Shown in pieces: positions 3,243-27,959 of a stretch of 33,050 bases of DNA. The number at the start of each line of letters is the position of its first letter. Positions within the stretch are counted from its first letter, which is position 1. Made by a program: the position numbers and the translations under genes. Below the pieces are notes generated by a model. It saw only the letters and a list, made by a program, of their open reading frames with translations, was not told where the DNA came from and ran no database searches. Source of the DNA: Nemertoderma westbladi (taxonomy: Eukaryota > Animalia > Xenacoelomorpha); NCBI GenBank assembly GCA_032718475.1, contig JAUCBJ010000170.1, forward strand, positions 1 through 33,050, given 5' to 3'.

Positions 3243-3379
3243 CATGGAATACTAAATATACACGGAACCAGATAGATGTCCGATTTCACAAGTCATTCTT
3301 AATCTATTGTACTCGATGCATGAATAAAAATTTTGAAAAAAAAATTGGTGGTCATCGATCTCGTTGCCATGGCAACAGA
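3243..3379. repeat. Left terminal inverted repeat of the P element (137 bp)
   Basis: Reverse complement of 6771-6918 except for a few substitutions and a ~11-bp deletion (tttattgctt present only in the right TIR). Confidence 0.93.
3363..3376. promoter_or_regulatory. Perfect RFX X-box palindrome GTTGCCATGGCAAC at the inner end of the TIR
   Basis: Exact 14-bp palindrome matching the RFX consensus, ~260 bp upstream of the transposase ATG; the right TIR has GTTGTCATGGCAAC (6774-6787). Function not shown. Confidence 0.45.
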
Positions 3380-3637
3380 GATTAAATTGTTGCGTGCATC
3401 ACTATCTAAATCGCTATATCGTCAACACTACTTGGCTAAGTAATTCCATAGTAACTGTGATAGAACGCATTACTGTAGTTCTAGAAGGCCTTGGTTGTAC
3501 AATACAATTTCACAGGGTTAAACAACACGACAGTGCGAAATCAGATTAGAACATACAGTACTGTATACCACACCTCTATAGCTAAAGTTAAAACACACCT
3601 TGTCCTACCTACAGTACAGTATATAAATTAATAACGA

Positions 3638-6592
3638 ATGCCTCGTGTTTGTTGTGTACCTAATTGTGGGGTGAGGGCCGGGCCTAGTGCTACGGTATAC
3701 TGTATACCCAAGGACACATCAACTAGGGACAAGTGGCTTAAAGCAGTGAGAAAGCCAGGGGTTTTTTCCTGCGACAGTTTTGGTGTCTGTTGCAGACATT
3801 TTTCATAAAGCGACTTCATTGCTAAGCCATTTAAAAGAAAAGAGCTGAGAGATTCCGCTGTGCCATCATTATGTCTACCAGGATCAGAGAAAAGTGAAAC
3901 AAAATTGCGACAACTATGGAGAAACGGGAAGCCTGGAAGGATCTCATTTCCACTGTCCAAGTTCGCTCGACCTAGTAGTAGTAGTAAGTACGATAAGGCG
4001 AGCCTTAGTATACTGGTATCATTAGGCAACGGTGTCTGTCTGGTTAATTTTTGAGAGCCTTCTGCTCGGCTGCTATTGATGCTTATTCAATTCAATTCAA
4101 TTCAAAGTAATCGTTTGTAAGTTGTACCATCTGTCTCAGATCAATGCACCAGTCTGCCGCTAGGGGGCACTAACGATCTGAATGTTTTTCTTAATATGGA
4201 ATTTTAAAAAATGTAGTATACTGCTTACTAGTAATCCTTCTTATTCTCCACGGTCTGTCTGCGGGGTGAGCCTGTCTGTCTGTCTACGCGTTTGAAACCT
4301 TGATAGAGTATATATAGAGTATATAGAATATAGACCAATATTTCTCATTTTGCAGACTTGGGATTCTCAAGCTATAAACAAATGGTTTAGAGAGGATGAA
4401 GTGTTTAACAATCGGAATGTAAGCATATTTTGGTATGGCAAAGAAGGAGCTATGTGTATTTCGGAAACATTCCCAGAGGCACCTGAATGTAGCTACATAA
4501 TCAATGTATCGCATGATGTCTTTGATGTTTACCGTAATGGGAGTACAATTCCATTATCAAATTTCAGTTTTTTGGATAGAAGGCTCTACGGATTTGAAAA
4601 ACTCAAATGCAAGAGTGTGTTATACAGACTGATGAATGAAATAAAAAACTACCAAGATCCAAAGTATGATAACGAAATCATCCGCTTCCTTGTGAGAAAC
4701 AAGCATTGCCGTCGGGTTTTAAGTTTCGAACCTTCATTGATTAAGAAAGCACTTTTTTAGATATAGAAGTAAGACAGCCTACGAGGAACTCTTGTCTGTC
4801 TTTCCTCAGTTCCATAGTCTATCTGTTTTGGAGAAAATAACTAAAGGATCCATCGATTCATACAAACTTCTCCAGAAAATGAAGATGGACAAAAACGTTG
4901 TTGTGTATTTAGACGAAATTCACTTGCATAAAGAGGCGGTTTTTGCACAAGTGTTACAGAATCAGATATAGGATCTTTGAATAGTTTTATGGTTAGAGGT
5001 CTGAGTCATGGGCAACCATTAGTAGTGAAATCTGTACCCACTGCAACCGCTATGACAGGACGGGAGATCATTAGTAACTTAGAAGTTTGCAGCAACCTAT
5101 GATCAGTCCAAACATCGCCACGAGTGGTGAAAAGTGATAATTCACCAACAAACGCTAATGCTATATTTAAGCATTTTGACAATTCAGAAATTTTACAAGG
5201 TATCATTCCGCTCTTCGATTATAACCATCTATTAAAGAATACCAGGAATAATTGGTTCAAACTAGGCATCTTTGTTTTACCACAGTTCAGTTGGCAGTTT
5301 AAGAATGATATGATTGAACTTTCACCAGGTAGTGAAGCAAAGGTTAGTGATGTGGCCGAAGTTTATTGTTTGGACACTTCTCATAATACTACCGCTCATT
5401 TACGACGAGCACCCAAGCTAACATTCTCGACATTACATGTCCAGAAGAAAAAACAAAACACTCAGCTTATGCTAAATCTTTACAGCGATTGTACAGAGAG
5501 TGCTCTGAGATATTATATTGACAGAAACAGTCCGACAGCAAATTTTGTGCGATTGATGAGGTTATTTTGGGCATTTATGAACACCAAAACTAGGAATCCG
5601 AAGACATCCACTATGTATACTGAGACATACCACAAAGACCAGATTGAGAGACGAAGTTTCTTGAAATACTTTGGTGATTGGGTGGAGGCATGGCGAGATT
5701 TGGGAAAGCCAGGTCTATCACCTCAAACCTTTAACGCCCTCCTATTGACTGTGCGCAATGCAGAGAAAGTGTTTAAACTCGAGTTTGAGGAACTGGGATA
5801 CAGCTTGTTAACACTCATGTCCTTGGAGACTATGCATTGGAGTTGCATTACTCTAAATATAGACAAATGTCTGGTGGCCGGTTTCTAATTGCTCTTCGTG
5901 ACGCACTAAACTCCAATAAAATGTTATCAATATGACTAATCATAAATGAAGACCTCGAAGTATCCGACTTTCTGTTGAAGAAAGATTACTACAATGAAGC
6001 CGTGTTGTTATTCGATGAAGTGTCTGAAATTGTGGATGAAGATGAGTTTCGTTGTCTAACTGTCAATGAAGAATCTCTAGATATTGTTGAATACATCTCA
6101 GGATGGATTGTGAAAACAGTAGGGCTCAATTGCCTACACTGTAATTTAAACGGTACAAATGACATCATTAGCGATTCTAAAAGAAGTGGGTCTACATCTA
6201 ATGAGTCATCTCGCCACTTTCTACATGATATAAATCGCGGTGGTTTAACCATTCCACATCAAAATCTTGTCAACTTCGTTTGTAATTGCATCGGTAACCT
6301 AGAACTAGCATATAAATTCCTGCAAAAAAATATTAAAGATGACAAATTCATATCAGCCGAAGTTCTCTTTCAGTACCTACAAATGCTTCCAGTAGATTCT
6401 TTGCATTCAAGATCAATAATATGCGATATTCACTCCAGTTATTCCTCCAAATTTTTATGCAAAATTATCAACGTGTTTCTGAAGGCACAGAGAAATCACT
6501 TGGCTGAGCTAATAGCTGAGAAAGAAAGCTACAAGACTGGGTTGGACGGTTTTAAGGCGCCTCAGCGAAACAAGGGAAGGAAATTGATCTGA
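3638..6592 (+). pseudogene. THAP-domain P-element transposase pseudogene
   Basis: From ATG 3638: MPRVCCVPNC...IPKD...KWLKAV...VCCRHFS*SDF...LRDSAVPSL (C2CH THAP with AVP box; in-frame TAA at 3806-3808). Later fragments across frameshifts: RYRSKTAYEELL, VVYLDEIHL, KSDNSPTN, FDYNHLLKNTRNNW, GDYALELHYSKYRQMSGG, YISGWIVK..CLHC..NRGGLTIP. Possible intron 3984-4355 (GTAAGT...TTTTGCAG), but its phases do not match without another frameshift. Confidence 0.9.
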
Positions 6593-6770
6593 AGTGCCGG
6601 TTGGAGGAATAAGAAAAATAATGCTGGGTTACAGAGCAGATCAGGCAACTTATTGATGAAACGGAAGCTATAGTGTATGTATATCGCTTTAAGCTTTGAA
6701 CAAATTTGGAAGCAATATTTACCGTATTTTCACTTATCGTAGTTGAAATAAAGGCAAAAAATGAAAAATG

Positions 6771-6918
6771 TCTGTTGTCATGGCAACGAGATCGATGACC
6801 ACCAATTTTTTTTTCAAAATTTGTATTCATGCATCGAGTACAATAGATTAAAGCAATAAAAAGAATGACTCGTGAAATCGGACATCTATCTGGTTCCGTG
6901 TATATTTAGTATTCCATG
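6771..6918. repeat. Right terminal inverted repeat of the P element (148 bp)
   Basis: Inverted copy of 3243-3379, followed by TSD GAAGAAT. Confidence 0.93.
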
Positions 6919-6965
6919 GAAGAATCCTCTTTGAGATTTCTTTAACAGAATATGCCTCTCTGCTG

Positions 6966-7619
6966 TGTCCCGGCTAAACAGTGGGAAAGCGGTTTGGGTC
7001 GCTTTTGGTTATTTTATGAGGCTTTGCCGGTAAAACCTTCATTTGGCGGCTGTAATACTAACGCCCGTCAGCCCGTATTCTACCGTGCTGGCGCGCTTGG
7101 CGTAATTTCATCACCTGAGCATGTAAACGTTAATTGCCAATGGCCCTTAAAATAAATATTCTTTATTATAAAACCTTCAGTTTATTTATTTCCTAAATCA
7201 GGCATGTCACTAAATGCGATATGAGCCAAAAACGGATGACAATAAGAGTGTAGTGGTGAAAATGGAACGCACACGCACAGTTCAAAAGAAATACTGGCGT
7301 TTATACAGCCGCATAGACGGGTGTCTAAGAGACTGCTAGAAACAGATAAAGGATAAAGTAGCTACTGACAGATGCAGTCAGTAGCTGGTGGGCACAGAGC
7401 AGAAAGTCTGATGTCCGTGTGATTCTATTCATCAGAATGAATGAATGAATGAATGAAATAGCAGTACGTCCAGTATTTATAGGTGACAGAGTGAAGAATG
7501 TATCAAATTATTAGTGTTGGCGGGAAATTTGAATGTTAATGAAGATAATGATAATGAATGAAATATCTAAGATATTTTTTACGTTTTTTGAGGGGGTAAG
7601 GACGCCGAAAGCCGTGACA
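6966..7619 (-). repeat. 3' LTR (654 bp)
   Basis: Direct repeat of 15935-16594. By eye only three differences: aataagagtg vs aataatcatgcagtg, gacaga vs gacaaga, gaagataa vs gaagttaa. Confidence 0.97.
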
Positions 7620-7627
7620 GTCCCCCC
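7620..7627 (-). other. Polypurine tract (plus-strand primer)
   Basis: Minus strand reads GGGGGGAC immediately before the TG of the 3' LTR. Confidence 0.8.
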
Positions 7628-7704: not shown

Positions 7705-7950
7705 GGGTTAAATGTATGAATGCGTGGAATCCCGCTTTAACCTGGGACCACTATACAGTACAGATGTTGTTAGTGGGACATAGGGGATCATTAAATGGTT
7801 GATTTTGTGGAATCCCGCTTTTACCTGGGTACACTTACTGTACAAGATGATTATATTAGTAAGACAGGGAATAGGTTATATGAGTGATGTTGTGGAATCC
7901 CTCTTTTACCAGGGTACACATACTGTACGCTATGATTATGTTATTAAGGG
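7705..7950. repeat. Three diverged ~84-bp tandem units in the BEL 3' UTR
   Basis: Core GTGGAATCCC(G/T)CTTT(A/T)ACC(T/A)GGG starts at 7724, 7807 and 7892 (periods 83 and 85). Confidence 0.85.
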
Positions 7951-8602: not shown

Positions 8603-11600
8603 TCAGGTTGCTTCCTCCAAAAGACACATCTTTCTAACTGGTCTTTTGTAGACACCAACAGGAGTTTTAACTTCGGCAGATCGAACCAATCCGGATTTAT
8701 CTGGGAATGTCTTTACGATTCTACCCCACCGCCATGAGTTTCGAGGTAGAACATCTTCATGAAGAAGGACAACGTCATCGACCTGGAGATTTCCACGTTT
8801 TCGATGCCACTTGTGGCGAATCTGGAGCGTGCTGACGTACTCCCTGAGCCACTTGTTCCAGAAGTGGTTCGATATAAGTTGTGCCTGCCTCCAGGTCCGG
8901 CGAGAGTAGGTGTCACTGTCGTCAAATGGTCCGGGAGGGTAGTTATAGGCGGGACGTTGGATAAGTAAGTGGTTGGGTGTCAAGACGTCGTCAGAAGTAG
9001 GGTCGTCAGTTACAGTACAGAGGGGCCTACTATTTACAATAGATTCAGCCTCGGCTAAAGTGGTTAAAAGTACATCATCTGTAACTAGTGCACCTTGCAG
9101 TAGGCCGTACAGAATTTCTTTAGTCATTTTAACCAATCTCTCATAAACTCCACCCATATGGGGTGCCCCTGGAGGAATATAACGCCATGTTACTCCTAAT
9201 GGTTTTAAATCAGAAATGAAATTTTCGGACCAGAGTTCAATGTTTTGTTTCATTTCTGAGTCGGCACCAACAAAGTTGGATCCATTATCAGACAATATCT
9301 CCTTAGGAGTACCTCGACCTGCAATATGACGCCTGAATGAGTTGATGAAGGCATCTGCTGATGCATCAGCAGCAATATCTAAAGATATGGCACGAGAGTT
9401 TAGACATGTATAAAGAATGCCATAACGCTTTATAGTAGAAGTACTACGAGTTTTACGATACTTGACTCGTAAAGGGCCAAACATGTCTACAGCAGAATAA
9501 GTAAATGGAGGAACATATGGAGTAAGTCTAGACTTAGGTAGTGGTGCCATGAGCTGTTCCATCCTACGAGCATGTTTCTTACGACAAAGAAAACATTTAC
9601 TGATTACAGAACGGGATAATGACTGGAGTCCGATTATCCAGAATTGTTGACGAATTGTGATAGTGACCTGGTCACGTCCGGAATGGCCAGATTTTACATG
9701 AGTGCTCCAAACCAATATTTTTGCAAGGGGGTGTGATTTCGAAAGAATGATGGGATAGGCAGCATCAAATGAAACTGGCGCAGATGCAATGCGACTGCCA
9801 AGTCTGACAATGCCATCATCGAATATCTTAGGGCAAAGCCGTGACAATGGGCTGGAAATGTGCACTGGTGAGGAATTGCGAAGACATTTCAGCTCTGTAG
9901 GGTAAAGCTGAGATTGTGCAAAACGCACAATGCACATACCTGCTCGTTGTATCTCTTCAATAGAAACCATAGTTCCTTTTAAAGATAGAACGGAATCGGG
10001 TGAGGTAAAGGAATTACAAAGACGGATAAGCCAAGCTATGATTCTTCGTAACTTATTCCATGATGATGAGTGATTTAGCAAGAGAGTTAAGCCATCGGCT
10101 GAAAACTTTAACTCAGGGTCTGGGGCTACGGTAAGTGAATACACCTGCTCTGAAGCTAATTCAATGCAAGAAGTAGGGACAAATTCTGGGAAGTTATCAA
10201 CTCTCTCACTGAGAAATTCTGGACCATGCCACCAACGAGTAGAATCAATAAGGGCACGAGCAGACAGTCCACGGCTCACATCATCAGCTGGATTGGATAT
10301 ACCAGGAACATGATGCCACTGGTCTAACTCTGAAACGCGAAGAATTGAGGCCACCCTGTTTGCCACATAGCATTTAAACTGGGTGGTTGTGTTATGAAGA
10401 TAAGATAGAACAACTGTAGAGTCTGTCCAGAAATGCGTTTGGGATATTGAGAGGCCAAGTTCAGTTACCATATTAGTGCTAACACCTGTTGCTAATTTAG
10501 CAGCCTGCAATTCCAAACAAGGAGTGCTTTGCGTAGATTTAATGGGAACCATTCTACTCTTAGAAAACAGAAGAGTTACATCAACTGACTCTGGAGATAC
10601 AACTCTTAGATAACTTACACAGCCGTAGGCAACCTTAGAAGCATCCGAGAAGTTGTGTATCTCATAGTACAAAATGTCTTCAGGAGGTGATGAACCAAGG
10701 TAAACTCTTGGTATTGTCATTTCTGACAGAAGATAAATCTCACTAGACCATTTTGACCATGGTTGTCTGAGTTTATTGGGGAGTTCATCGTCCCACTTTA
10801 ACCCTTCCTTCCAAATGTTTTGGATAAGCAAACGACCAGCAACAATGAAAGGGGATATGAGGTTAAGTGGGTCATAGATTGAGCTAAGGAGAGCTAAACA
10901 TCCACGTTTAGTGTTAGGGACCTGTTTCTCCTTATAAAGAAATGTGAAAATGTCAGATTCTGTATTCCAGATTACACCGAGAGCACGTGTAACTGGAAGT
11001 TCATCCATGTCAAGATTTATTGATGGCATGGCTAGTTTGGCTTGCGGGATATGTAGTAGAAATTCCCGCGAGTTGGATATGAATTTCCGGAGAGGAAAGC
11101 TACCATGTTCTAGACAACTTATAACCCCTAAAGCGATGCGGATAGCATCTTTGATTGAATGGCAAGACTTTAAGATGTCATCAACATACATGGCTTTAAG
11201 AATGGCCATGATAATGTCAGCATCATAAAGGTGGGCATGGTCAAGAGCGCAATGTCTAACACCATAAGTTGCAGTGCACGAAGAGCAACGAGCACCAAAA
11301 ATGTGCACCAACATTGCATAAGTATCAATAGTACTGGCACCAGGAGATTGCCAAAGAAACCGCAGGCTGTCAGAATCTTGTGGTGTGACCTTCACCTGAT
11401 GGAACATGCTTTCTATGTCTGCGATGAAAGCAATAGCACCAATACGAAATCGCAATAATACCCCGACTATGGAACAGCAAAAGCCGGGACCATCCATGAG
11501 TTGATTATTTAAAGAAACACCTTTGTATAGAGCAGAGCCATCATTAACAATTCGAATGTGTCCTGGTTTGTTAACATTTTCAACGAAATGATGGGGAAGA

Positions 11601-14600
11601 TAGAATGTTTGAGGACCATCAGGAATATCAGCTTCTGTAAGTTTACGAGCAATCCCCTTAGAAATGTACTGGTCAATATTGTCCTGATAAAGCTGATATT
11701 TGTCAGGCTTATCCTTTAATCGCTTCAAAAGACTAAGAACACGGGACATAGCTAAGGGGTAATTATTGACAAGCTTAGGGGGATATTGCTTCCAAAGCAT
11801 TCCGATTTGGTAGCGATGATCAATAAGTTTGGTTGATTCTTTGAGCATCTCTAGTGCTTTGAGTTCGTCCCTAGAATAAGCTTTGTCTTCATCATTTTCC
11901 ATAAGAAAATCAGATGAGGTAGTTGTACCGAATTTATCTAGTCCTAAGAATTGATTAAGTTGTAGTTCCAGTTCCTTACTGAGTAGAGTTGTTTCCTTTG
12001 CAACTATGTGATGGACACTAACACTGGGAAGATGGGAAACATTTCCCACAGGGCCAATTACACACCAACCAAAGGGAGTATGGATAGCAGAAGGTTCTGA
12101 GTTAGGATGTTCAGGCCACTTATGCTTATCGCGAAACAAAGCCTGGGGGTAATTTGCACCTATGAGGACAGTGATGGATGGAATGTCCACTTTGGGATGA
12201 GCCAATTCCAAAGAGAGGGGGAAAAGATGAGGAAAAGTTTGCAGGTCAATGTGCTTGCTGTCATGAAGAAACTCACGCTTAATATTTGAAGTTACATAGA
12301 CCTTGTCGAACCTCATAACTAAGTTTGGATCAGTATCTAACTTGCCAGGAACAGGAGTTACTGAACATGATACCTCCCCGACTGAGACAGGTTTATCAAT
12401 ATCTAACAATGTACTCAATCGTAATGATGTTTGACGTGGGATTATACCAACATGGTCAATGACAGATTTGTCAATGAAAGATGAAGTAGAACCGTCATCC
12501 AATAAGGCAAATGTAGAAACACTGTCCTTGTCGAAAGAAAGCCTAATTGGAACAACCGAAAGCCAGACAGAGGGGGTCTGTTTCGAAAAAAGGACCTCCG
12601 AGTCAACAATGGATGACATACCAACCTGTTCTGATTCTTCTGATGCTATAGATCCTTGTACAAAGTTTGAATCTGTAGTGATTTTCTTAGCAGGTGATTT
12701 GCTAGTTTCCTTTGAAGTAGTGCTATTCTTATTCATAGAACTTGAAGAAGAATTGCTGGACTTTGTCTTTGCAGCATCAGGATTATGAAGGCTTGTATGG
12801 TGTCGTTTGGAACATCCAGGAGTCCTACAATGGTATTTAGAGGTACAAGTTGAAGGGCTATGGTCATAATAAAGACAATTATAACACAATTTCTTATCCT
12901 GAACAACTTTCTTTCTGTCAGCAAGAGATAATTCAAGATATTCTGGACATGAAGAAATACCATGATCTAAACCATTACACTTCATGCATTTCCTTGTGGA
13001 TGTTTTTATGGTATCTATATTAAGGGTAGTGACCTTAGGTTTTGGTTCAGTAGGTGCTAGCGACCTTTGACTTGGTTGATTTTGTGCAGTAGAAGTAGAC
13101 GAGTATGTGGACGAGTGGGAACTATGGGGAACATACACAGGGTCATTGATGACCTCTGCTTCTTCATCTACGAATGCTGCTAGTACTTGGAGGGTAGGTT
13201 CATGGTTACCATGGGAGCGTCGATAACTACGAGCATGGCGGCACCACCTACGATGGATGTCTGGTGGGAGATTGGATGCAACTTGTTTGAGATTGGCTGA
13301 AGAGTTCATCTCATTGCTATCTGATAGTTGCTGAAGAACTGCAACATTAGACATAATATTATCAGCATAATTACGGAGTCGTTCTCTACGCTGGGTTGCT
13401 GATCCACCTAAATCTGTCTTGACAGTAAGTTTATCAAGAATAGTTTGGATAATAACACTAGGGTGGCCATATCTGTTATGAAGGGCCATCCAAGCACTGG
13501 AGTATCCGTTAGGAAGACCACTATACATTTCAATAAGGGTATGAGCCTTGCCTGTGGTATACTGCAAGAGATAATTCAACTTATCATATTCATCAAGAGG
13601 TTTGGAATCTATCTGAGCTCTGAAAGTTGCCAAGAAAGAAATATAGTTGGCAGGATTTCCATCAAAGGACTTTGGTTGAGGAGGTGGAAGAGAAAGCTTA
13701 GTGTTAAGTTTGTCCAAAGTATCAAGAGTCTTTGAAAATATTCCATCAACAGAGGAAGAATTTATGTTTGAGAAATTTGGATTGATATAACTGCTACCAC
13801 TGGGAGGAAGACCGGTAGAAGGACATCCATAGCCCCCTTGACTATGGAAGGGATGATTTGGCTGAGAAGGTCCCCCCATGGCGATATGTGGGGACATACT
13901 ATAAATACCTATATCCCCAGTAGGCTGGCCTGAGAAAGAATTGTATCCACTTATTGGGTTGGATGGATGAGAGTGGTTGCCACGACCTACATTATGATTG
14001 ATATGGTAACTAGATAATAATTCAGTAGTCAATGGTGTTGTAATTGACATATTGCTACTGGTATTACTATTATTAACACTAGGTCTAGGATAACTATCTA
14101 CATTAGGGACAATCCTAGTACTATAAGCGTTACTAAGGCTAGGAAGGCTATATATAGATTGCTGTGTAAAATAAGGTGTAGGCACTACAGTTACAGGGGT
14201 ATTAATATCAGTATGCTTACCAACTATAATAGGCCTATTACTAATAGCTAAACTTGGCAGTGGCAGAATTGGTGATAAACAGGGGGTAGAAGCGGGATTA
14301 AACATTATATTAGGCATGCTGGGGCCAGTGTTAATTGCCGAAAAATTGTTTTCAGTTTTAAGCCCCGCCGGCTGAATAAAGGGGTTTGGAATTGCAGGTT
14401 TCTCTTTGAAGTCTACTAGATCTCGTTCAGCCATTTCCTGCTCGGCTTGTTCCAATTTTAATTTAGATAAATCTAATTTGTCTTTGGCCTCTAATTCAGC
14501 ACGTCTTATATTTTGTTTGGCCTCTAGTTCAGCAATTGCATGTTCTTGCTTAAGCCTGTTATACCTCTGGGTAGCTGTAGAAGATACATGAGAACTGTTT

Positions 14601-15532
14601 GAATGTACACTATCAGCCATAGAATGTGTACGTGTTCTATGTCTACTAGGCTGTAATGGTGATTGGTTAGATTCAAACGCATTCTGAGAAACAGAATAAG
14701 GATTTGAACCACTACTAATATTAGTATTTTGAATGACAGGCCTACCTGTTTGTACGTTAGTGGTACTAGGCCTAGGCGGGTTATTTATACCGGTACCTGG
14801 GATGATTTGCGGTGCAGTGCCAGATATAGCAGGCTGCCAAGACAAGAAACCGGGTTCGTGTATATATGGTTTGAATTCCTGAAATTTGGACATAATTTCG
14901 GTATTCACTATGACACACTGAGCACGCAAATATTCCGCAGGTTCGGGCATATTGATGTCGTTATATATATCAGCGTTTGATTGAAAGGAAGACAACATTT
15001 TATTATAGCTGTCCAGACAAGAAGAAAATAAACTTTGTACGATATTGGAATCCATTTCAGCACCAGAAATTTGAGCTTTCTGTTTAAGTGAAATAAATTC
15101 ATTAAATGTTTTAGAAAATTTTGATTTATAACCCCTGATGGTACCTTTTATTGTCTGTAAATTGGGCACCACCAGTAAGCTTTTGTCCTGCATTTTTGCA
15201 TTACCGGAAGTAGGCCCCCCACCGGTACCGGAAGTAGGCCTACCGGTCCCGGAAGTAGGCACACCGGTAGCAGAAACCCTTTGGCGTACCGGTACAGTGT
15301 CGGAGGTAGGCCTAACTACAGGATTTCTTTGCCTACCGCTACCTGTTGGGTTTGTCGGTCTACTGTCGTCATTGTCAGAGTGAATGTTAATGGCAGTGGA
15401 GTGGAGCTGGAGATGGTCGGTTGTACTTACACCTATTCTCGCCGGATCCGGATCATGATAGGCTTGGCTGTCGTCGATGATACCGTTTTCCGAACCGTCC
15501 GAAATGTTCGGATTGACCAGAGTTTCATCCAT
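8603..15532 (-). CDS. gag-pol: BEL/Pao gag-pol polyprotein (2309 aa from first ATG)
   Basis: Uninterrupted ORF; the track start at 15571 is a GTG and the first ATG is at 15532. Capsid-like FDGNPANYISF; knuckles CMKC..H..C, CYNC..H..C, CRTPGC..HHTSLH; protease ALLDDGSTSSF; RT YLPHH, ADIESMFHQV, YVDD (11177-11188); RNase H FSDAS, ELQAA, WTDS, NPAD; integrase HH-CC, VDMFGP, SDNGSNF, GGVYERLV. Confidence 0.97.
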   Translation of the reverse strand: MDETLVNPNISDGSENGIIDDSQAYHDPDPARIGVSTTDHLQLHSTAINIHSDNDDSRPTNPTGSGRQRNPVVRPTSDTVPVRQRVSATGVPTSGTGRPTSGTGGGPTSGNAKMQDKSLLVVPNLQTIKGTIRGYKSKFSKTFNEFISLKQKAQISGAEMDSNIVQSLFSSCLDSYNKMLSSFQSNADIYNDINMPEPAEYLRAQCVIVNTEIMSKFQEFKPYIHEPGFLSWQPAISGTAPQIIPGTGINNPPRPSTTNVQTGRPVIQNTNISSGSNPYSVSQNAFESNQSPLQPSRHRTRTHSMADSVHSNSSHVSSTATQRYNRLKQEHAIAELEAKQNIRRAELEAKDKLDLSKLKLEQAEQEMAERDLVDFKEKPAIPNPFIQPAGLKTENNFSAINTGPSMPNIMFNPASTPCLSPILPLPSLAISNRPIIVGKHTDINTPVTVVPTPYFTQQSIYSLPSLSNAYSTRIVPNVDSYPRPSVNNSNTSSNMSITTPLTTELLSSYHINHNVGRGNHSHPSNPISGYNSFSGQPTGDIGIYSMSPHIAMGGPSQPNHPFHSQGGYGCPSTGLPPSGSSYINPNFSNINSSSVDGIFSKTLDTLDKLNTKLSLPPPQPKSFDGNPANYISFLATFRAQIDSKPLDEYDKLNYLLQYTTGKAHTLIEMYSGLPNGYSSAWMALHNRYGHPSVIIQTILDKLTVKTDLGGSATQRRERLRNYADNIMSNVAVLQQLSDSNEMNSSANLKQVASNLPPDIHRRWCRHARSYRRSHGNHEPTLQVLAAFVDEEAEVINDPVYVPHSSHSSTYSSTSTAQNQPSQRSLAPTEPKPKVTTLNIDTIKTSTRKCMKCNGLDHGISSCPEYLELSLADRKKVVQDKKLCYNCLYYDHSPSTCTSKYHCRTPGCSKRHHTSLHNPDAAKTKSSNSSSSSMNKNSTTSKETSKSPAKKITTDSNFVQGSIASEESEQVGMSSIVDSEVLFSKQTPSVWLSVVPIRLSFDKDSVSTFALLDDGSTSSFIDKSVIDHVGIIPRQTSLRLSTLLDIDKPVSVGEVSCSVTPVPGKLDTDPNLVMRFDKVYVTSNIKREFLHDSKHIDLQTFPHLFPLSLELAHPKVDIPSITVLIGANYPQALFRDKHKWPEHPNSEPSAIHTPFGWCVIGPVGNVSHLPSVSVHHIVAKETTLLSKELELQLNQFLGLDKFGTTTSSDFLMENDEDKAYSRDELKALEMLKESTKLIDHRYQIGMLWKQYPPKLVNNYPLAMSRVLSLLKRLKDKPDKYQLYQDNIDQYISKGIARKLTEADIPDGPQTFYLPHHFVENVNKPGHIRIVNDGSALYKGVSLNNQLMDGPGFCCSIVGVLLRFRIGAIAFIADIESMFHQVKVTPQDSDSLRFLWQSPGASTIDTYAMLVHIFGARCSSCTATYGVRHCALDHAHLYDADIIMAILKAMYVDDILKSCHSIKDAIRIALGVISCLEHGSFPLRKFISNSREFLLHIPQAKLAMPSINLDMDELPVTRALGVIWNTESDIFTFLYKEKQVPNTKRGCLALLSSIYDPLNLISPFIVAGRLLIQNIWKEGLKWDDELPNKLRQPWSKWSSEIYLLSEMTIPRVYLGSSPPEDILYYEIHNFSDASKVAYGCVSYLRVVSPESVDVTLLFSKSRMVPIKSTQSTPCLELQAAKLATGVSTNMVTELGLSISQTHFWTDSTVVLSYLHNTTTQFKCYVANRVASILRVSELDQWHHVPGISNPADDVSRGLSARALIDSTRWWHGPEFLSERVDNFPEFVPTSCIELASEQVYSLTVAPDPELKFSADGLTLLLNHSSSWNKLRRIIAWLIRLCNSFTSPDSVLSLKGTMVSIEEIQRAGMCIVRFAQSQLYPTELKCLRNSSPVHISSPLSRLCPKIFDDGIVRLGSRIASAPVSFDAAYPIILSKSHPLAKILVWSTHVKSGHSGRDQVTITIRQQFWIIGLQSLSRSVISKCFLCRKKHARRMEQLMAPLPKSRLTPYVPPFTYSAVDMFGPLRVKYRKTRSTSTIKRYGILYTCLNSRAISLDIAADASADAFINSFRRHIAGRGTPKEILSDNGSNFVGADSEMKQNIELWSENFISDLKPLGVTWRYIPPGAPHMGGVYERLVKMTKEILYGLLQGALVTDDVLLTTLAEAESIVNSRPLCTVTDDPTSDDVLTPNHLLIQRPAYNYPPGPFDDSDTYSRRTWRQAQLISNHFWNKWLREYVSTLQIRHKWHRKRGNLQVDDVVLLHEDVLPRNSWRWGRIVKTFPDKSGLVRSAEVKTPVGVYKRPVRKMCLLEEAT

Positions 15533-15915
15533 GATGTTAATTATAGACGCGCCCGCGTCCGTAAATACCACGATATACGCAGGCCTGTTCGCCTACCTAC
15601 TGACCTACCACTACCACTGCTGCTGCTACCAGACAGCCTACTTTAGGCCTAATTTACTGAACCTGCTGTCAATGCCCGAATGCTGCAATCAGGCAATGTC
15701 AGCTGGCGGTAAGGTGGTAACAGACTGGCAGAGCCGTTAGGGCTTGTGAAGGAGAACAGAAAAAAGCATAGGCCCAGGCCTATGTGCATGTGCAACAAGC
15801 ATAAATTGCAGTCAGTACGGCTACAGCCAGACAGCAGTAAAAGCGCAGTATTTCTTTTTTAATACCGATACGTTATTAATAAAGAAAATGATTTAGAAAT
15901 TTGAGAATTTATAAT

Positions 15916-15929
15916 TATTTCTTTTGAAC
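15916..15929 (-). other. Non-tRNA primer-binding-site candidate complementary to the element's own LTR
   Basis: RNA-sense GUUCAAAAGAAAUA begins 5 nt inside the 5' LTR boundary, has no TGG start, and is the exact complement of LTR 16254-16267 (RNA-sense UAUUUCUUUUGAAC). Confidence 0.65.
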
Positions 15930-16447
15930 AAAACTGTCCCGGCTAAACAGTGGGAAAGCGGTTTGGGTCGCTTTTGGTTATTTTATGAGGCTTTGCCGGT
16001 AAAACCTTCATTTGGCGGCTGTAATACTAACGCCCGTCAGCCCGTATTCTACCGTGCTGGCGCGCTTGGCGTAATTTCATCACCTGAGCATGTAAACGTT
16101 AATTGCCAATGGCCCTTAAAATAAATATTCTTTATTATAAAACCTTCAGTTTATTTATTTCCTAAATCAGGCATGTCACTAAATGCGATATGAGCCAAAA
16201 ACGGATGACAATAATCATGCAGTGTAGTGGTGAAAATGGAACGCACACGCACAGTTCAAAAGAAATACTGGCGTTTATACAGCCGCATAGACGGGTGTCT
16301 AAGAGACTGCTAGAAACAGATAAAGGATAAAGTAGCTACTGACAGATGCAGTCAGTAGCTGGTGGGCACAGAGCAGAAAGTCTGATGTCCGTGTGATTCT
16401 ATTCATCAGAATGAATGAATGAATGAATGAAATAGCAGTACGTCCAG

Positions 16448-16455
16448 TATTTATA
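16448..16455 (-). promoter_or_regulatory. LTR TATA box
   Basis: Minus strand CCTATAAATA with TCATTC repeats ~20-40 nt downstream; same site at 7474-7481 in the 3' LTR. Confidence 0.65.
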
Positions 16456-16493
16456 GGTGACAAGAGTGAAGAATGTATCAAATTATTAGTGTT

Positions 16494-16508
16494 GGCGGGA
16501 AATTTGAA
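16494..16508 (+). promoter_or_regulatory. E2F / CDE-CHR-like element in LTR U3
   Basis: GGCGG-GAAA-TTTGAA has the CDE + 4 nt + CHR spacing and overlaps the E2F site TTTCCCGCC; ~40 bp upstream of the TATA; also at 7519-7533. Confidence 0.45.
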
Positions 16509-17629
16509 TGTTAATGAAGTTAATGATAATGAATGAAATATCTAAGATATTTTTTACGTTTTTTGAGGGGGTAAGGACGCCGAAAGCCGTGACATGCTGG
16601 GATCTTTAACATATAACAAGCACCCCTTATTCAGTATGTCTGTCGTTACCTTTAATTTATAATCTTATGAAGTAGAACTGAATTATACGATACTTGTGAC
16701 AATCGGTTTGTGTTTAACATGTATTATTTAATTGATATATATTTATGTAATAATTAGTGAATATTACTCATCAATATAGAATAGAGTAGACTGACATACC
16801 TGCTGCTGGTGCTTCTTCATTCATCGTTAATTAATTAAGTAGAAACCAATGTGTCTTGCAGCATTAATCAATTTGTCAATTTAAAATACCAGGATATTAT
16901 TATTAGGCCAGTGTTGATTGATATTAACATTCACGAGGCCATTTCTTCTCAAATAAACTATTTATTTCAACTATTATTAAATAGAATACTATATAAACAT
17001 CATTTGTAAAACTAAACAAATAAAAAACTCCTACAGATAAGGAATTAATTTGGTGTGTGAGCTTTGAAATTGGAATTAAGGAAGACTTTATTGAGATGCT
17101 GGTTGATTTGCATAAAGAAACAAGTATATAGGCAGATACTCCCATACATGTAGACATACATATATACAAGTAGCACATATAATTCAATAATAAATTATAA
17201 ATTATACATAAACAAGTATATCAAAATGGAATACGACTGTTACATAATCTAGGTATCTCTAATAATAATCTTATAAAGATATACAATTTCATAAACGAAA
17301 TATTTCTGAGCAATATATATATATATATAAACAATATAATTTCGCGTTTAGAAAATTGTATATTAAATCTATAAATATGTACAGTAGGCTTACATACCAA
17401 CAAGTTAATATAATAAATATACACATTTGTGTCAGATAAATAATTAATAATTAATTAATAATAATTAATAATTAATAAAGAACAAGTATAATAATTAATG
17501 TGGACGTGTAAATAAGGAATGATAGCTCTTCCTCCTTGTGCTAAATTTTTTGCGTTTTTTTTCCTTTGTATATATATTTAGCAGCATTTTAAGAAAACCC
17601 GTAATTTAACCTGGAATCTATGTGGAATC

Positions 17630-17820: not shown

Positions 17821-18473
17821 GAAAAAGTGTCTCCATCAATATTATACCAGTTACACCGCAGCTAAATATTTTTCAATTTTATATTGATTTGTTGGTAGCA
17901 ATGGAAAGCTGGCCATGCAAGGATTCCATATATGTAAAAATATTTGGTTTGGGAATTGCTGAGGTATGGGCATTCGAAAGTTGCATGTATTTACTTCAAC
18001 TGCAGGCCATTTTATTACATTTATTGAATACACCATATTCTGGAACATGTTGTTTATCTCATAAGTAGCTGGGCAACAGTTAATGCCTATATAATTTGAA
18101 TTCATGTCACCTGTTCCAGCTCTGTTTGGATCTGCTACCAGTCAAACAATGGACCCTCTACTGCTCCTTCCTCTCCAACACGGTGGCGTGGACTGGGGAT
18201 CAGTGATCCCCTTATTCGTTGTGGAACCTCACACCTTGCATCATAATTGGACACACCAAACATTGAGGAGTCCATTCATCTCGTGTTCTCACTGCTCAAC
18301 TGATGGTGTGTGTGTGTGGGGGGGGGGGGGGGGGGGGGTGGAAGCTCAGATGTTAATTAAACACCTTTTGTGTCAAAGCGGGTGGGGATGAGGCAGCGTG
18401 GGTTGGGGGTTGTGTTGGGTGCTGTGAGGTGGCGATTGCACTTTGCGCTGTTGTGGGCTGCTTCACTGTGTCT

Positions 18474-19470
18474 CAGGGGTGGAAGGATACCATGGAGGAG
18501 ACTCGGTTTTGGAGACGGAGCGGGTGTGCGGGGGTGGAAGGAGACCATGGAGGAGTCTCGCTTTCGGAGATGGTGTGGATGTATGGGGCAGAAGGAGACC
18601 ATGGAGGAGTCTCTGTTTCGGAAATGGAGCGTGTGTGTGGGGGCAGAATGAGACCATGGAGGAGTCTCGGTTTCGGAGATGGTGCGTGTGTGCAGGGGTG
18701 GAAGGAAATCATGGTGGAGTCTCGGTTTTGGAGACGGAGTGGTTGTGCGGGGGCAGAAGGAGACCATGGAGGAGTCTGGGTTTCGGTGACAGTGCGTATG
18801 TGCAGGGGTGGAAGGATACCATGGATGAGTCTCGGTTTCGGAGATGAAGCGGGTGTGCAGGGTGGAAGGAGACCATGGAGGAGTCTCGGTTTCGGAGATG
18901 GAGTGGGTGTACAGGGTGGAAGGAGACCATGGAGGAGTCTCGGTTTCGGAAATGGAGCGTGTGTGTGGGGGCAGAAGGAGACCATGGAGGAGTCTCGGTT
19001 TCGGAGATGGTGCGTGTGTGCAGGGGTGGAAGGAGATCATGGAGGAGACTCGGTTTTGGAGATGGAGCGGGTGTGCGGGGGTGGAAGGAGACCATGGATG
19101 AGTCTCGCTTTCGGAGATGGTGTGGGTGTACGGGGCAGAAGGAGACCATGGAGGAGTCTCGGTTTCGGAGATGGTGCGTGTGTGCAGGGGTGGAAGGAGA
19201 TCATGGAGGAGTCTTGGTTTTGGAGACGGAGCGGGTATGTGGGGGTGAAAGGAGACCATGGAGGAGTCTCGGTTTCGGAAATGGAGCGTGTGTGTGGCGG
19301 CAGAAGGAGACCATGGAGGAGTCTCGGTTTCGGAGATGGTACATGTGTGCAGGGGTGGGAGGTGATCATGGAGGAGTCTCGGTTTTGGAGACGGACTGGG
19401 TGTGCGGGGGTGGAAGGAGACCATGGAAGAGTCTCGGTTTCGGAGACGGAGCGGGTGCGTGGGGTTTTAC
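18474..19470. repeat. G-rich minisatellite, 18 units of ~55 bp
   Basis: Consensus GGGGTGGAAGGAGACCATGGAGGAGTCTCGGTTTCGGAGATGGTGCGTGTGTGCA; CATGG recurs every 54-55 bp from 18491 to 19422. Confidence 0.95.
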
Positions 19471-20889
19471 TGCTACTACTAGGATCAGCATGCCGCATTG
19501 CAGCTGCATTTTTAAGAATGCTGTGCCGGCTTGTCGACAAAATTGCGCCACCACAACTCCCTATCACCCATGACATTTGCTAGATCATCCGCATCTTCAA
19601 GGCCAGTATCCTTTAAGATGCGTCTCAAGAAAGTCATGGACTGTCCACCATGCTTATTCACTCCATGAGGCTGCCAAAGTACACGATTATGCACTGGCTG
19701 GTCCTCACGGCGAAAGCAATGTCCTGCAAAGCGGAGGCGATTTTGTTCTAGTGTCAAGCTTGGGGGAACCAATGAGATACCTCCAATGTTATATAGTGTC
19801 TGGTTGGAGATGTGTGCATTGTACTTGACACAACGAACCCGGCGTAGCATTCTTGTGAATGTGCCATCCAGAGATTTGATGTCCTCAGCAGTTAGAGCCC
19901 AGCATGGATTCCCATAGAGGAGTACTGGAACTGCTGCTCTTAACGACTCGTAAGAGCTGCTCGGACCTTAAGTTTCTGATTAATTCTCGGTGACTTCCAA
20001 ATCCTGGAAAGCCTATTCAAGGCTGCCCATGCCTTTCCCTTACGTATTCGAAGGTCCTCACCTGACTTCCGGATCCATGATTCCAGGTAACAGAAGTCGT
20101 CCACATGCTCAAGCATACCATCCTTTGAGCTTATGCTCATCCGATCAGAGACTTGCTGAGGACTTTCAAAGTTAACTGTCAAAATTTTGGTCTTTCTGGA
20201 GTTAATAAAAAGACCAACACTAGAAGCAGCATGTTCTAATGAGCTGAGGAGCCGTTGGGCTCCCTCTAGTGATTCTGAGAGTACTCCTAAGTCATCAGCA
20301 AAGTCTAGATCAGTTAGGTACTTGGCAGGATTTCCTCGACTTCTGGAGCCAGTAGGTGGAGTTATCATCACCCCATCATCATTATGATGATCTAAGGACA
20401 TGCGTAGAACATAGTCAACCACAATTATGAACAAGAATGGTGCAAGTGTGTCTCCCTGGAGGACGCCCCATAACACTTCAAATGGTTCTGTGTCACCGTC
20501 AACAGTAGACACAAATGTTGTCGAACCATCGTATACTAATCTGATTGCTGCAATGATTTCATCAGGAATCCCATATAATGAAAGTATGCTGAACATACGT
20601 GAGCGAGAGACTGAATCAAAGGCCTTGAAGAAGTCAACAAAGATAACAGCCAGATGCCTGTCTTTCTTTTTTGATAACTCTTCAATTATCCTTCTAAGTG
20701 CCAAAATGGGCTCCATGGTCCCACGCACGACCTTAACGGAACCCATTCTGATTTCCATGGAGCAGTCTCTCAATGGGATCCCTGATGCGATTTAATATAA
20801 TTCTATTGTATAGCTTTGCAGCAATTGAGATCAATGAGATTCCCCGAAAAGAACCATAGAGTGTTAGGTTGGCCTTCTTGGGAACTGGC
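19471..20889 (-). mobile_element. 5'-truncated RTE-like LINE, copy 2 (disrupted RT)
   Basis: Near-identical to 229-1628; tail CC(TAG)3CA; lesions are a 4-bp CGTG duplication near 20725 and a replaced segment at ~19936-19965; flanked by an 87-bp duplication. Confidence 0.92.
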
Positions 20890-23249: not shown

Positions 23250-25247
23250 AATATTTTTTTTATGAAATTGTCAACTTCAAAACCCTACTACTTCTACAAT
23301 TTTTGAGCAATTAGTCTGAAAATTATGTGGGTGTATATATAGCCATCCTGCATGAAAGTATCAAACAACTTTTTGAAATTTTTTGTTAATAAAACTTAAT
23401 ACTATTTATAACAAACCTAAAAAATTAGCATAAATTTGCAGCTAAATGTGCAGATTTATTTTCACAAAATTTCGCCTGATAGTTACATTGCCCATCTTTT
23501 ATCTATCATATAAAAAAAACTTTCATGTGATTAGATTCAAAACTGTAAAAGCCTTAGGGTTTTAAGCGCACCCAAGTTTTTTTTAATGTTAACTAGTATT
23601 AACTAATATTAAATAGCGAAAAATAATTTTTTTTTAATCATGTAGAATAGCATCTTAGGTACTTCAATTCCAAATTATAGCCAAAACCAAACAATTTTGA
23701 AACGCTGAGAGTGATAAATCGAAGAGTTGTCCGAAAATTGTGTAGAAACTAATTTACATTCAGCGAGCAATGTTTAATAGTTATATCAGTATCGTTTGCC
23801 AATTAGTGATTAATATGGTATGCGCAATGTTTAAGGAATACCTTCCATAACCTAACAGATAAATAATTGTTTGAATTTTAATGCACTGCAAAGCATATCA
23901 GTCAGACAAGATTCAAAGGTTATTTGTATAATCATGAAACTTATTTACAAGATCAATAACAATTACGTGATATATATAGCATTACTGATAATGACTAACC
24001 TTGCTTAGAAACATAATCACAAACCTAGACACTTCTGATCTCACTTCAGAAAGGACAATGTGTTTAAAGAATAAAGTGATGGACGATTCGCCTTAAATTT
24101 TCTCCCAACATTGCTACTCCACGAGCTCAGATTGAAAAAATAGAAGACCAGCTTAAACGTACTTCCACTTACCTCTCACGTACTGATACATAAAGAGATA
24201 AACAGTCTAAATAGAAAGAACTCACCTGATTTGAAATCCCTGGTGATATAACACTATAGATAATGCTCCTGCAAAAATAAGCCTTCTTAGCACTTCTAAA
24301 AATCTTTAATGGAAACATACTAACCTCATACTTTATCAATCCAAGTGCTTTTACCCATTCACACAGATTTGGGTATACGAAGTGTTGGAATGGACTTGGT
24401 TATTGGCTTAGTGATTGAATGAATGTAGCGCTTGGCGCGATTTTTGAATTACTGGCAGACTGGCTGGCGTAGCTTTGCACCAAGCCAAAATACAGTAACT
24501 ACTTGAGTACAACAGTCTTTCTTAAGTTCAATGGTTCAAAGGGTTACCGAAATTGAGACATCAGAAAAACAATCCATTCCTCATAGTGTGGTGAAATTAG
24601 ATAAGTCTACAACCAAAGTATTGTATTTAATAGTAGCTGCTTGGTTGATCCAATCGACGAAAATAGTAAGAATATTTCCTTCAGGACTATTCTATTCGGA
24701 TATGTTTTGGTTTAGTTTGTATTCTATTTCTGCACACCAAGGTTCTTTAAAGTTCCATGCAGTTATATGTTTCATATGTTAAAGATTCATGCAGCAACTA
24801 TGTCACAGGAACCAGAAGTAATTGATTCTCATTATGAATAGTCTCCAACTCAAGTGAACATTTCATTAATTTATTTAGGGGGGGGGGGGGGGGGGGGGGT
24901 AGCACTCCCAAATTGAACCTCACATTTTTGTGTCTCTGGACATTAAAATTGGGTGAATTTTTTTGTGCTACTATACATCGTCTGGACTGTGTAAGAATAA
25001 CCAAACCAAGTATTTTTAAAAATGGCCCATAAGTGGCTCGGTAATGGCCAAAAGTGCCTTTTTGCGCCAATGGCTATTTCTGCACCAATATTTGTTGAAA
25101 TTTGTCGAAATTTGGAATATAAGTTCAGAAGAACCCTGCATCCAATTCTTCTGAACAAATTTTGCCTCAAATGCTCAAATTTCAACAAATTAAAAATCTA
25201 AAAATGAAACAAATTCACACTCATTTCAGATAAAATTGGAGGAGAAA
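23250..25247. repeat. ~2-kb duplicated block, copy A
   Basis: Colinear and nearly identical to 30848-33050; lacks ~240 bp found in copy B (~31988-32229) and has ~45 extra bp near 23577-23625. Confidence 0.93.
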
Positions 25248-25485
25248 TAAATAGCCTTTTCCCTGAAAAAACGTCATTTTGAGATATGGGTGTTTAAAGT
25301 TTTAGGAACAATTCAATCCTTCCTGCTATTTTAGATATACCATTTTTCTATGTTCAACAATATCTTTGTCAAAAATAAATGACATTCAACGAAATTTTTC
25401 ATGCTTGCTAAACAGATAACTAGTAAATCAACATTTTAGCAATTTTATTCACATTTGTACCGTAACTGCCACTACACATTAAAAT

Positions 25486-25705
25486 CGAGGGCAGAAAATA
25501 TAAAGCGAGGGCATAAAATATAAAGCGAGGTCAGAAAATATAAAGCGAGGGCAGAAAATATAAAGCGAGGGCAGAAAATATAAAGCGAGAGCAGAAAATA
25601 TATAGCGAGGGCAGAAAATATAAAACAAGGGCAGAAAATATAAAGACAGGGCAGAAAATATAAAACAAGGGCAGAAAATATAAAACAAGTGCAGAAAATA
25701 TAAAG
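25486..25705. repeat. 20-bp tandem array, 11 units
   Basis: Unit CGAGGGCAGAAAATATAAAG drifting to CAAGGGCAGAAAATATAAAA, in exact 20-bp phase. Confidence 0.95.
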
Positions 25706-27959
25706 ACTGAAAGACAGGGAAGAAAATGTTATGAAGGCCAATGAAGGCCAATGTACAGATATACTGTACATTCTACTGTCTGACTGTATAATTGACCGCT
25801 ACCGGCAGACCGGTACAGTTGTATGAGTACCATGGTTCCGGTTGGTTTAACAAACTTTTAACAACTTATTGACGCCGAAGTGATCAGGTTGCAAGGACTA
25901 ATGTGTTTCATGGCCTCCACCTGCAGTAGACCTACAGTGCTGCAGTAACAGTACATACAGTGTGCTACAGTACTGGTACTGTACTGTAGTACCATACTGG
26001 TGCAGTGTTGACCGTTGGACCATTTTCTGCATTTGTTTTACCATTTTCTGCATTTGTTTTACCGTTTTATGTTATCAAACCCAGAAACTGCTTGTGCTTA
26101 CCTTATTGTTCAGTTGTTGTCTTTTACTATGTTGTAAGTTTACTATGACTACTGGACTACTGACTGTCTGACCATATGGTTTCCCTCAATTGGTGAAGTG
26201 ATCGTTAATTGTTTTGGGGTTTTTGTTTTGTTTTGTGTTACTTATATCACATCACATCATATCATATCATATCACATCAACTTATATCTGTATATGAATC
26301 TGAATATATCTGAATCTGTATTATGTGGAGGCCCCCAAATACGTTAATCCCAATCCCGTAGTACCAGTTTGCCGGTACCTGAATGTGCATATCTGCATAT
26401 GACCACTACAGGGGGGGGGGGGGGGGGGGGGTAACTGCTCCATAATGAAACCAAGGTTTCTGCATGGTTCAGCGGGGGTGGGGGGGGGGGGGGGTAGTAA
26501 TATTTGTGCTCAACTAAATTTTTTTTTATTTATTTATTATATCTACTGTACTTACACATGTCTTATTTCCGGTATTACATACATAGGAGTAACATAGTTG
26601 CTCCTGTACACTGACGCTATTGTTCCAAATAATCATTTAGTGTGTATACATTGAATGCCCAGTGCAATTTTTTATCATAAATTCTCTGCGTGGGATAAAT
26701 ATTTCTCCATTTGACGCAACACCGCCGCGGCCGCTATGAGGGAGGTGAATACCGCGGCCGCTCCTAAAGCCGCAGGCCATCGCTAACTATATAGGTTAAC
26801 TTGGGATTCTGGGGGACTTTTCGATGAAGGAACTGACCAATTTTTTTTATTTTCGCACCAGGGGAGCGGCTCGGAATTCTAAGATATTAGCAACTCTAAC
26901 ATTAGCAAATCTATCCCCTCGACGGACACGGCAGACAAAAAACCGTCATTTTTTCGACTTTTTTAAAAATTTTTTGAAAGGCGCTCTACAGTGGCTCGAA
27001 AAAACCCTAGGTTATTGCTTAGCCGACGCCGGGATACGATAGAAGGGATTAATTGGTGAATTCGTTTTTTTTTTCAAAAAAGATTAGCACGCCTTTTTCC
27101 CGAAATTGTCCGTCAAAGTTGAAAAAACGGACAAAATGACTTTGCGGGATCCGCTATAACTCGGCTAATATTAATCGTACGGGGACGAAAGTACCGCGGT
27201 TGGAAAGGGGAAGAGTGGTACTACCTTCGTATCGAATGGGGGTAAGATATTTATTAAAATTTCGGGTGGAAAAAGGGGCCGTAAATTTGTACGTTTTTGT
27301 CCGTCTTTTTTGGAACACTTATTTCCGAAATGTTTAATTCGACAACGCGGGTAGGAATCCACTAATTCTTTTATGAAACTCGTAGAAGACCATTGGGGCT
27401 ACGTTCCTATCGAATGGAGGTACAAAAAATATGTCAGCAATAGGGGCCAAAAAGGGCCAGAATTTGTAATATTCTAGTAGTATTTTTTAGTAGTAGTTTT
27501 TTCGAATATTTTTTTAATTTTTAACTTTAGTTGGTTAAGGTACATTCTATGCGGTCAATATCGATACGGGGAATTCAAATATGCTATAGGTTTTGCTCCA
27601 AGGATGATAATAAAAAAATGAGGGCCAAAATTATAATTTCGCGCTTCAAACTCGCTTTGCGGGAAATCGTCTAGCTCGAAAACTACTTAACTTACGGGAG
27701 ATTTGTTTACACAGACTTATAGTGCGTTAAATTATCTATCTAACAGCGTTAATTACAGCGCCGGAGGTATTATTAAACTGGAGCGGCAGACGATCGTGTG
27801 AAATATAATATTTATAAAAAGGGACGAAAAATTTTTTTTTTTTACAAATCGCTACTCCATTATAGTTTAGCGTATTGCGCCAAAAGTACCTGTAAAAGGT
27901 ATCAAATTAACTCCGCTATCTTTTATTTTAACATATATAATTAAAATTACGAATTTTAA

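Follow-up and report, generated by a model that had tools for sequence, protein, structure and literature searches.

The window, the whole 33,050-nucleotide stretch of Nemertoderma westbladi DNA analysed here, contains an intact BEL/Pao LTR retrotransposon on the minus strand (16594-6966), which consists of the following parts:

15935..16594, minus strand: 5' LTR, 660 bp, TG...CA, delimited by the repeat pair, the target duplication and the breakpoints of other insertions
6966..7619, minus strand: 3' LTR, 654 bp
6961..6965, no strand: left copy of the target-site duplication TGCTG, 5 bp
16595..16599, no strand: right copy of the target-site duplication, TGCTG
7621..7627, minus strand: polypurine tract, one base ahead of the 3' LTR
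8603..15532, minus strand: single uninterrupted Gag-Pol ORF, 2309 aa counted from the first ATG

The two LTRs share 98.8% identity (blastn); a single substitution, a gap of 1 nt and some 5 nt of further gap set them apart. Domains identified in the Gag-Pol ORF include DUF1759, Peptidase_A17 (E 2e-43) and DUF5641, with Integrase_H2C2 slightly below the cut-off, and a Pfam domain search of the element gave no chromodomain match. The ORF contains YVDD, which we take to be the RT motif, and presumed RNase H and integrase motifs. Pao-type domains, the PR-RT-RH-IN motif order, TG...CA LTRs, a target duplication and a polypurine tract are thus all features that the element shares with BEL/Pao. Homologues with these Pao-type domains numbered 1490, the named ones at 39-46% identity coming from sea anemones, corals, sea urchins, molluscs and fish. 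The viral contigs searched held no relatives of the element, and a PDB sequence search with the RT-RH stretch returned 0 matches. The 1-kb 3' non-coding region ahead of the polypurine tract includes three imperfect 73-nt repeats at 7708-7948, spaced at 83-85.

The family is present in four public DNA sequencing runs. A contig in run X2 joins position 6960 directly to 16595 and represents the empty allele, and contigs from other insertions end exactly at 15935 and 16594; from this it follows that the element is young, is present in multiple copies and has secure LTR ends. An earlier sequence-only reading, which had called the element intact and young, agrees with the uninterrupted ORF and the polymorphic insertion.

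Several other repeats occur in the window. The BEL element is inserted about 40 bp from the end of a 3.7-kb element (3243-6918) with terminal inverted repeats of about 140 bp starting CATGG and a 7-bp flanking direct repeat; this is likely a decayed P-element-type DNA transposon, and its ORF at 5103-5885 has a weak match to a TNP-like GTP-binding domain (E 0.0025). A LINE-like RT fragment with RVT_1 matches is present in two inverted copies (96%), at 229-1623 and 19479-20889, and the second adjoins a G-rich array in which a 55-bp unit is repeated in tandem about 19 times (18419-19470). A 2-kb dispersed duplication (23250-25247 and 30848-33050, 93-98%), a 20-bp tandem array (25446-25725) and inverted 161-bp units (28290-29111) were also identified.

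Primer-binding site and its complement in the LTR

Members of Belpaoviridae are described by the ICTV as primed by host tRNA-Arg or tRNA-Gly at an 18-nt complementary site (PMC8742986). No such site for a tRNA-Arg or tRNA-Gly 3' end was found in the element. The first TGG lies 105 nt past the 5' LTR, and consequently no intact tRNA 3' end can pair at the primer site. Membership in BEL/Pao is unaffected because it rests on the polyprotein, and the sequence-only description of a BEL/Pao element that lacks a tRNA primer site is upheld on both counts. ARAGORN found no tRNA in the whole window, and Rfam over 15500-16700 gave nothing relevant and one chance-level match.

Instead, a stretch shortly after the 5' LTR exactly complements 14 nt of the LTR itself:

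15916..15929, minus strand: predicted primer-binding site, exact complement of LTR 16267-16254, without TGG
15930..15934, minus strand: spacer between the LTR end and the primer-binding site, 5 nt
16254..16267, minus strand: predicted 3' segment of the self-primer, ending in AC, with the inferred cut between 16254 and 16253
7280..7293, minus strand: copy of the segment in the 3' LTR, same 14-mer

This complementarity had been noticed from the sequence alone and is borne out by searching the window, where the 14-mer occurs exactly three times (15916-15929 on the minus strand, 16254-16267 and 7280-7293 on the plus strand) against a chance expectation of 0.06 with one mismatch allowed. When the first 30 nt after the LTR were used as query, a match of at least 14 nt arose in one of 3000 dinucleotide shuffles of the LTR, and other 30-mers sampled along the internal region matched the LTR over 10 nt at best. 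A further pairing proposed in the earlier reading, between UGU in the LTR and the LTR-terminal ACA, does not hold: it needs a shifted register that is about 6 kcal/mol worse, and the pair probability at the LTR end is about 0. We also considered whether the match might be extended by an intron within the LTR of the window element, and rejected this, as that LTR has no GTAAG, GTGAG or GTATG donor and no junction match of at least 6 nt.

Among the variants compared in public-run contigs (40 of 50 substitutions and 12 of 21 indels), none falls in the primer site, the LTR segment or the second leader site described below, and several fall in 15859-15906, which is a weak contrast.

Transcript start, second leader site and predicted folds

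Motifs in the LTR and a second leader site point to a transcript start about 157 nt upstream of the segment:

16448..16455, minus strand: predicted TATA box TATAAATA, motif match
16421..16426, minus strand: predicted initiator, A at 16424, 31 nt from the TATA box; in a (CATT)n run, which makes the match weak evidence
16131..16159, minus strand: predicted poly(A) signals AATAAA, at 16159, 16155 and 16136
15834..15858, minus strand: second leader site, degenerate complement of LTR 16283-16258, 22 of 26 columns, 13 nt perfect

The segment accordingly lies between the TATA box at 16455 and the AATAAA signals, as the sequence-only reading had placed it, and transcription is inferred to start near 16424. 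A TATAAA at 16279 is a less likely promoter than the box at 16455 and would put the start downstream of the segment.

The score of the second site was equalled by three of 500 shuffles under strict scoring. The site has 10 nt in common with the primer site; beyond these it goes on complementing LTR bases that precede the segment, whereas the primer site does not. It cannot prime because the part holding the primer's 3' end is absent. It may lengthen the main helix or compete with it (constrained folds, -164.4 versus -161.9 kcal/mol), or it may be a relic of over-long primer copying. Since the second site complements the LTR up to 16283, the transcript should start upstream of that position if the site arose or was kept at the RNA level. 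It therefore suggests that the primer would be cut from inside the transcript and not from its 5' end. The earlier reading had left two options, a start at the adjacent CCAGT or a cut inside the leader, and the latter appears to fit better, given that the complement reaches bases upstream of CCAGT.

The first option corresponds to a Tf1-like arrangement, in which transcription would start at CCAGT just upstream and the RNA would supply its first 16 nt as the primer. The helix probability is near 1 when the transcript begins at 16269 and the leader is ended at 15900, the initiator match at 16424 sits in a microsatellite, and one relative (L007) has a TATA-like motif about 35 nt ahead of its donor. 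However, no TATA box lies about 30 nt upstream of 16269 while a canonical one occurs at 16455, the second site complements bases up to 16283, and extending the leader to 15780 drops the helix probability from 16269 to 0.01. We regard this arrangement as very unlikely.

For an internal cut, the segment pairs most probably through the primer helix in predicted folds, with a probability of 0.36 from the 16424 start and 0.86 from a 16290 start, and this helix is absent from the minimum-energy fold of the full predicted leader. Tf1 is described as needing two further duplexes flanking the primer helix (bioRxiv 10.1101/2022.12.06.519325, accessible text). Such duplexes reached p<=0.05 in only two and one of 19 elements, respectively, in a crude duplex-energy test against shuffles, and gave p = 0.24 and 0.82 in the window. 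The flanking duplexes of Tf1 thus find no support here as a means of specifying the cut. An 8-bp AT-only duplex (15915-15908 with 16141-16134) and a U5 hairpin (15951-15933) were also tried, and both were no better than shuffles.

Own-LTR matches among relatives

Relatives were collected with an alignment of 32 Pol proteins as query, which yielded 78 metagenome loci from the best 80 of 592, and were supplemented by 12 loci in host-derived contigs of bacterial bins and 15 more bin regions. The bins concerned (L079-L090, G001-G010) are bacterial genome bins containing animal BEL/Pao contigs, with 13 matches in G001 alone, which represents host contamination. Most loci were dropped because they were too short to span an LTR together with its primer site. 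The first set comprised 17 non-tRNA elements. Scanning 32 further loci contributed seven with plausible LTR ends, and two were found by eye, giving 26 elements, namely the window element and 25 relatives. Six elements (five tRNA-type, one other) served as controls. The scan left L071 ambiguous, and L010, L011 and L028 were excluded for incomplete LTRs.

A primer-site match of 10-16 nt to the element's own LTR was identified in 23 of the 26 non-tRNA elements, a count that, like the AC rule below, is inflated by the placing of the LTR end in 18 of the 25 relatives by eye or scan at CA followed by a GT-like start. The background was 18 of 650 cross-pairs, four of them between sister families, and four of 226 shifted windows, and none of the six controls exceeded 6 nt. 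The first set had given 10-14-nt own-LTR matches in 16 of 17 elements versus six of 272 cross-pairs and none of the six controls. Where two clean LTR copies fix the LTR ends (seven elements), the window element and five of six relatives pass, these five reaching 11-12 nt. The three misses are L084, which has well-defined LTRs and one mismatch in 11 (8 nt perfect), L030, whose second exon lies outside the contig, and L086, whose LTR piece was chosen too short in the final set and which matches over 11 nt in an open scan. The open scan also returned matches of 10-14 nt distant from any recognisable LTR end at about eight loci (e.g., L001 and L006). Loss of the complementarity in relatives had been named as the outcome that would speak against self-priming, and the opposite was found: these elements match their own LTR and rarely another's, which supports the interpretation of probable self-priming. 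The spacer measures 0-8 nt in the relatives and 2-9 nt between LTR and TGG in tRNA-primed ones; judged from these elements, a spacer ahead of the primer site is normal for BEL.

A tree of RT-RH sequences (67 rows: 20 self-matching, 11 tRNA-primed and 36 unlabelled; quick method, unrooted, named clade references absent) has one branch that splits all self-matching from all tRNA-primed rows with SH-aLRT 95, although several tRNA rows are near-copies, and none of 500 label shuffles scored as low. The window element falls on the self-matching side, nearest to L007 at 46% identity, on a long branch (1.15).

Only four matches are contiguous (the window element, L013, L074 and L076). The other 19 of 23 arise only across a predicted GT-AG junction that removes 33 to several hundred nt from the LTR. 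A strong donor (GTAAG, GTGAG or GTATG) is present in 15 of these 19; the donors of L083 and L012 are doubtful, and the far side in L080 is only 2 nt. Three pairs of elements show compensated differences: between L119 and L120 two bases before the donor differ, as do both paired primer-site bases, and compensation is seen at two positions between L007 and L032 and at one between L065 and L068. The LTR side of the match ends in AC in 22 of 23 cases (three with one extra matching base), subject to the inflation noted above. In most relatives, the matching stretch would thus exist only after removal of a predicted LTR intron, and the window element is likely an intron-less form.

The complement of an exon junction needs spliced RNA, and an inversion at the DNA level therefore cannot produce such a match. 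Spliced RNA would need to have served either as the selected partner or as the template for the junction complements. The product of plus-strand synthesis normally terminates with a copy of the primer site (PMC7175516, accessible text), and a self-primer would for this reason rewrite the primer site in each cycle.

These data bear on whether the match arose by chance or by local DNA inversion, the true tRNA site having been lost and the family mobilised otherwise. The stretch is AT-rich, and the second leader site shows that inverted copies of the LTR stretch can arise here. Against this stand the shuffle result, the intact ORF and polymorphic insertion of the element, and clade-wide, family-specific matches across splice junctions; the explanation is largely refuted by the own-versus-other LTR tests, and we consider it exceedingly improbable.

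Alternatively, the pairing might be structural, acting in poly(A) suppression in the 5' LTR, in packaging or in dimerisation, with priming by a host RNA such as a tRNA fragment. The second site gives an alternative helix of similar predicted energy, and half-tRNA primers are known in copia lineages according to the accessible text of PMC6317226. We nevertheless judge such a role quite unlikely: the match lies 0-8 nt from the LTR end, differs per family, follows the element's own LTR and is missing from elements that have a tRNA site, and a host primer would need to differ for every family. Very probably, the primer is element RNA in some form.

Other features of the relatives were observed in passing. 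A tRNA-Arg-type BEL element (L063:3318-3862) has an LTR that also contains intron-like GT-AG segments, and LTR introns may therefore predate the primer switch. The predicted LTR introns of L065 (7152-7184) and L068 are merely 33 and 37 nt long and would need a host with very short introns. In another BEL family (L073:145 onward and L066), CT-rich bases come after the LTR end and then TGGTAGC, a tRNA-like site that is neither Arg nor Gly. A run X2 contig on 15934-16563 represents a diverged sister LTR family that aligns at 16253-16388, stopping at the predicted cut site, with no alignment at 16055-16252.

Proposed mechanism and comparison with known systems

On the observed anatomy, complementarity and family-specific conservation we base a model whose transcript start, splicing, cut, primer, course of reverse transcription and jump we infer from sequence. 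The element is likely to prime minus-strand DNA synthesis with its own RNA by fold-back and internal cutting, a reading in which we place fairly good confidence. A transcript from about 16424 would pair 16267-16254 with 15929-15916, and a cut directly after the terminal AC (16254), made by the element's RNase H by analogy with Tf1, would free a 3' end for reverse transcriptase. The primer would be an internal piece about 170 nt long, unlike the first 11 nt in Tf1. Reverse transcriptase would proceed through the 5-nt spacer and U5 and on through about 140 nt of R, up to the cut, and the cDNA would jump to the 3' LTR copy, the source of all sequence upstream of the cut. Plus-strand synthesis would copy the primer end back into the primer site, keeping the pair matched, and intron-less members would arise through splicing of the 3' LTR copy.

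In the relatives, the intron is retained in both LTRs. The 3' LTR copy must consequently escape splicing, which a pure fold-back model leaves unexplained. Intron retention in both LTRs would be accounted for by a primer acting in trans, in the form of a short transcript of the LTR alone. This transcript, terminated at the poly(A) signal in a 5' or solo LTR and spliced in most relatives, would be cut at AC and pair with the full-length RNA at its primer site. Consistent with such a transcript, a poly(A) hexamer lies 1-94 nt past the primer end in 12 of 19 elements, and flanking fold-back duplexes were not found in the 19 elements. Predicted folds, on the other hand, favour the 14-bp helix within one molecule, and Tf1, the sole tested case, acts in cis according to the accessible text of PMC7175516. 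A trans primer seems to us unlikely, and fold-back within one RNA remains the preferred reading.

A broader proposal, on which we are evenly divided, is that a broad BEL/Pao lineage in aquatic animals swapped tRNA priming once for a primer of element RNA assembled by the spliceosome across an LTR intron and cut internally at AC without a pretzel fold. The window element would then descend from this lineage as an intact member without the intron, and its second leader site would be left over from plus-strand synthesis that ran on too far along the long primer. If true, replication would be tied to host splicing, control via tRNA supply would be bypassed, and it would be explained why primer-site finders miss such elements. 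Being intact and intron-less, the window element would be the simplest member in which to seek the cut and the primer.

Similar to Belpaoviridae in general (PMC8742986), the element has LTRs within 0.2-1.2 kb, a single gag-pol ORF, the PR-RT-RH-IN order, a polypurine tract and an animal host; the 18-nt tRNA site and tRNA priming described there are lacking in the element and its clade. No report of self-priming in BEL/Pao was found in the searchable literature, though subscription papers (including the original Suzu description) and Repbase or GyDB notes could mention it, and a term look-up in the main text of four BEL/Pao surveys (PMC554778, PMC3118150, PMC6238403 and PMC8556966) found PBS, tRNA and priming unmentioned.

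Outside BEL/Pao, the accessible text on fungal GalEa copia elements (PMC5445492) describes a Conserved Hairpin Site and likewise no tRNA primer site, but the hairpin lies inside the leader and the authors found no LTR complement. The accessible parts of PMC6317226 and PMC4600332 describe self-priming in the Tf1/sushi group and predict it in Tcn1 and TAR. For the plant lineages Tcn1 (gypsy) and TAR/Houba/Osr-1 (copia), the in-silico criterion was a match of at least 10 nt starting 0-5 nt after the LTR, which also describes the window element, and both cases are sequence-based (PMC6317226). These lineages belong to other superfamilies and hosts, and a splice-built primer is unmentioned in the accessible part of that source.

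The closest likeness is to the Tf1/sushi group of Ty3/gypsy chromoviruses, including Tf1/Tf2 of Schizosaccharomyces pombe, Tj1 and Tosmo1-3. As far as the accessible texts go (PMC7175516, PMC4600332, bioRxiv 10.1101/2022.12.06.519325), these elements also have no tRNA site, a primer site that complements their own LTR RNA, and a cut that is needed to free the 3' end, made in Tf1 by RNase H between bases 11 and 12 (PMC7175516). Unlike them, the window element belongs to a different superfamily, with Pao-type domains, and its primer is predicted to be internal and not the first 11 nt, with a spacer of 0-8 nt in its clade. The two flank duplexes of the three-duplex pretzel do not outperform shuffles in 17 and 18 of the 19 elements, the window included, and the match in most BEL relatives spans a predicted splice junction. 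The proposed mechanism would work like Tf1 self-priming, yet outside the Tf1/sushi group. Tf1 is the only case in which self-priming has been demonstrated, a few gypsy and copia lineages are predicted to use it, and BEL/Pao is listed as tRNA-primed; if the model is true, this BEL clade would extend self-priming to a third LTR superfamily with a different architecture, in which the primer is internal, the pretzel is missing, and the primer sequence of most members exists only after splicing.
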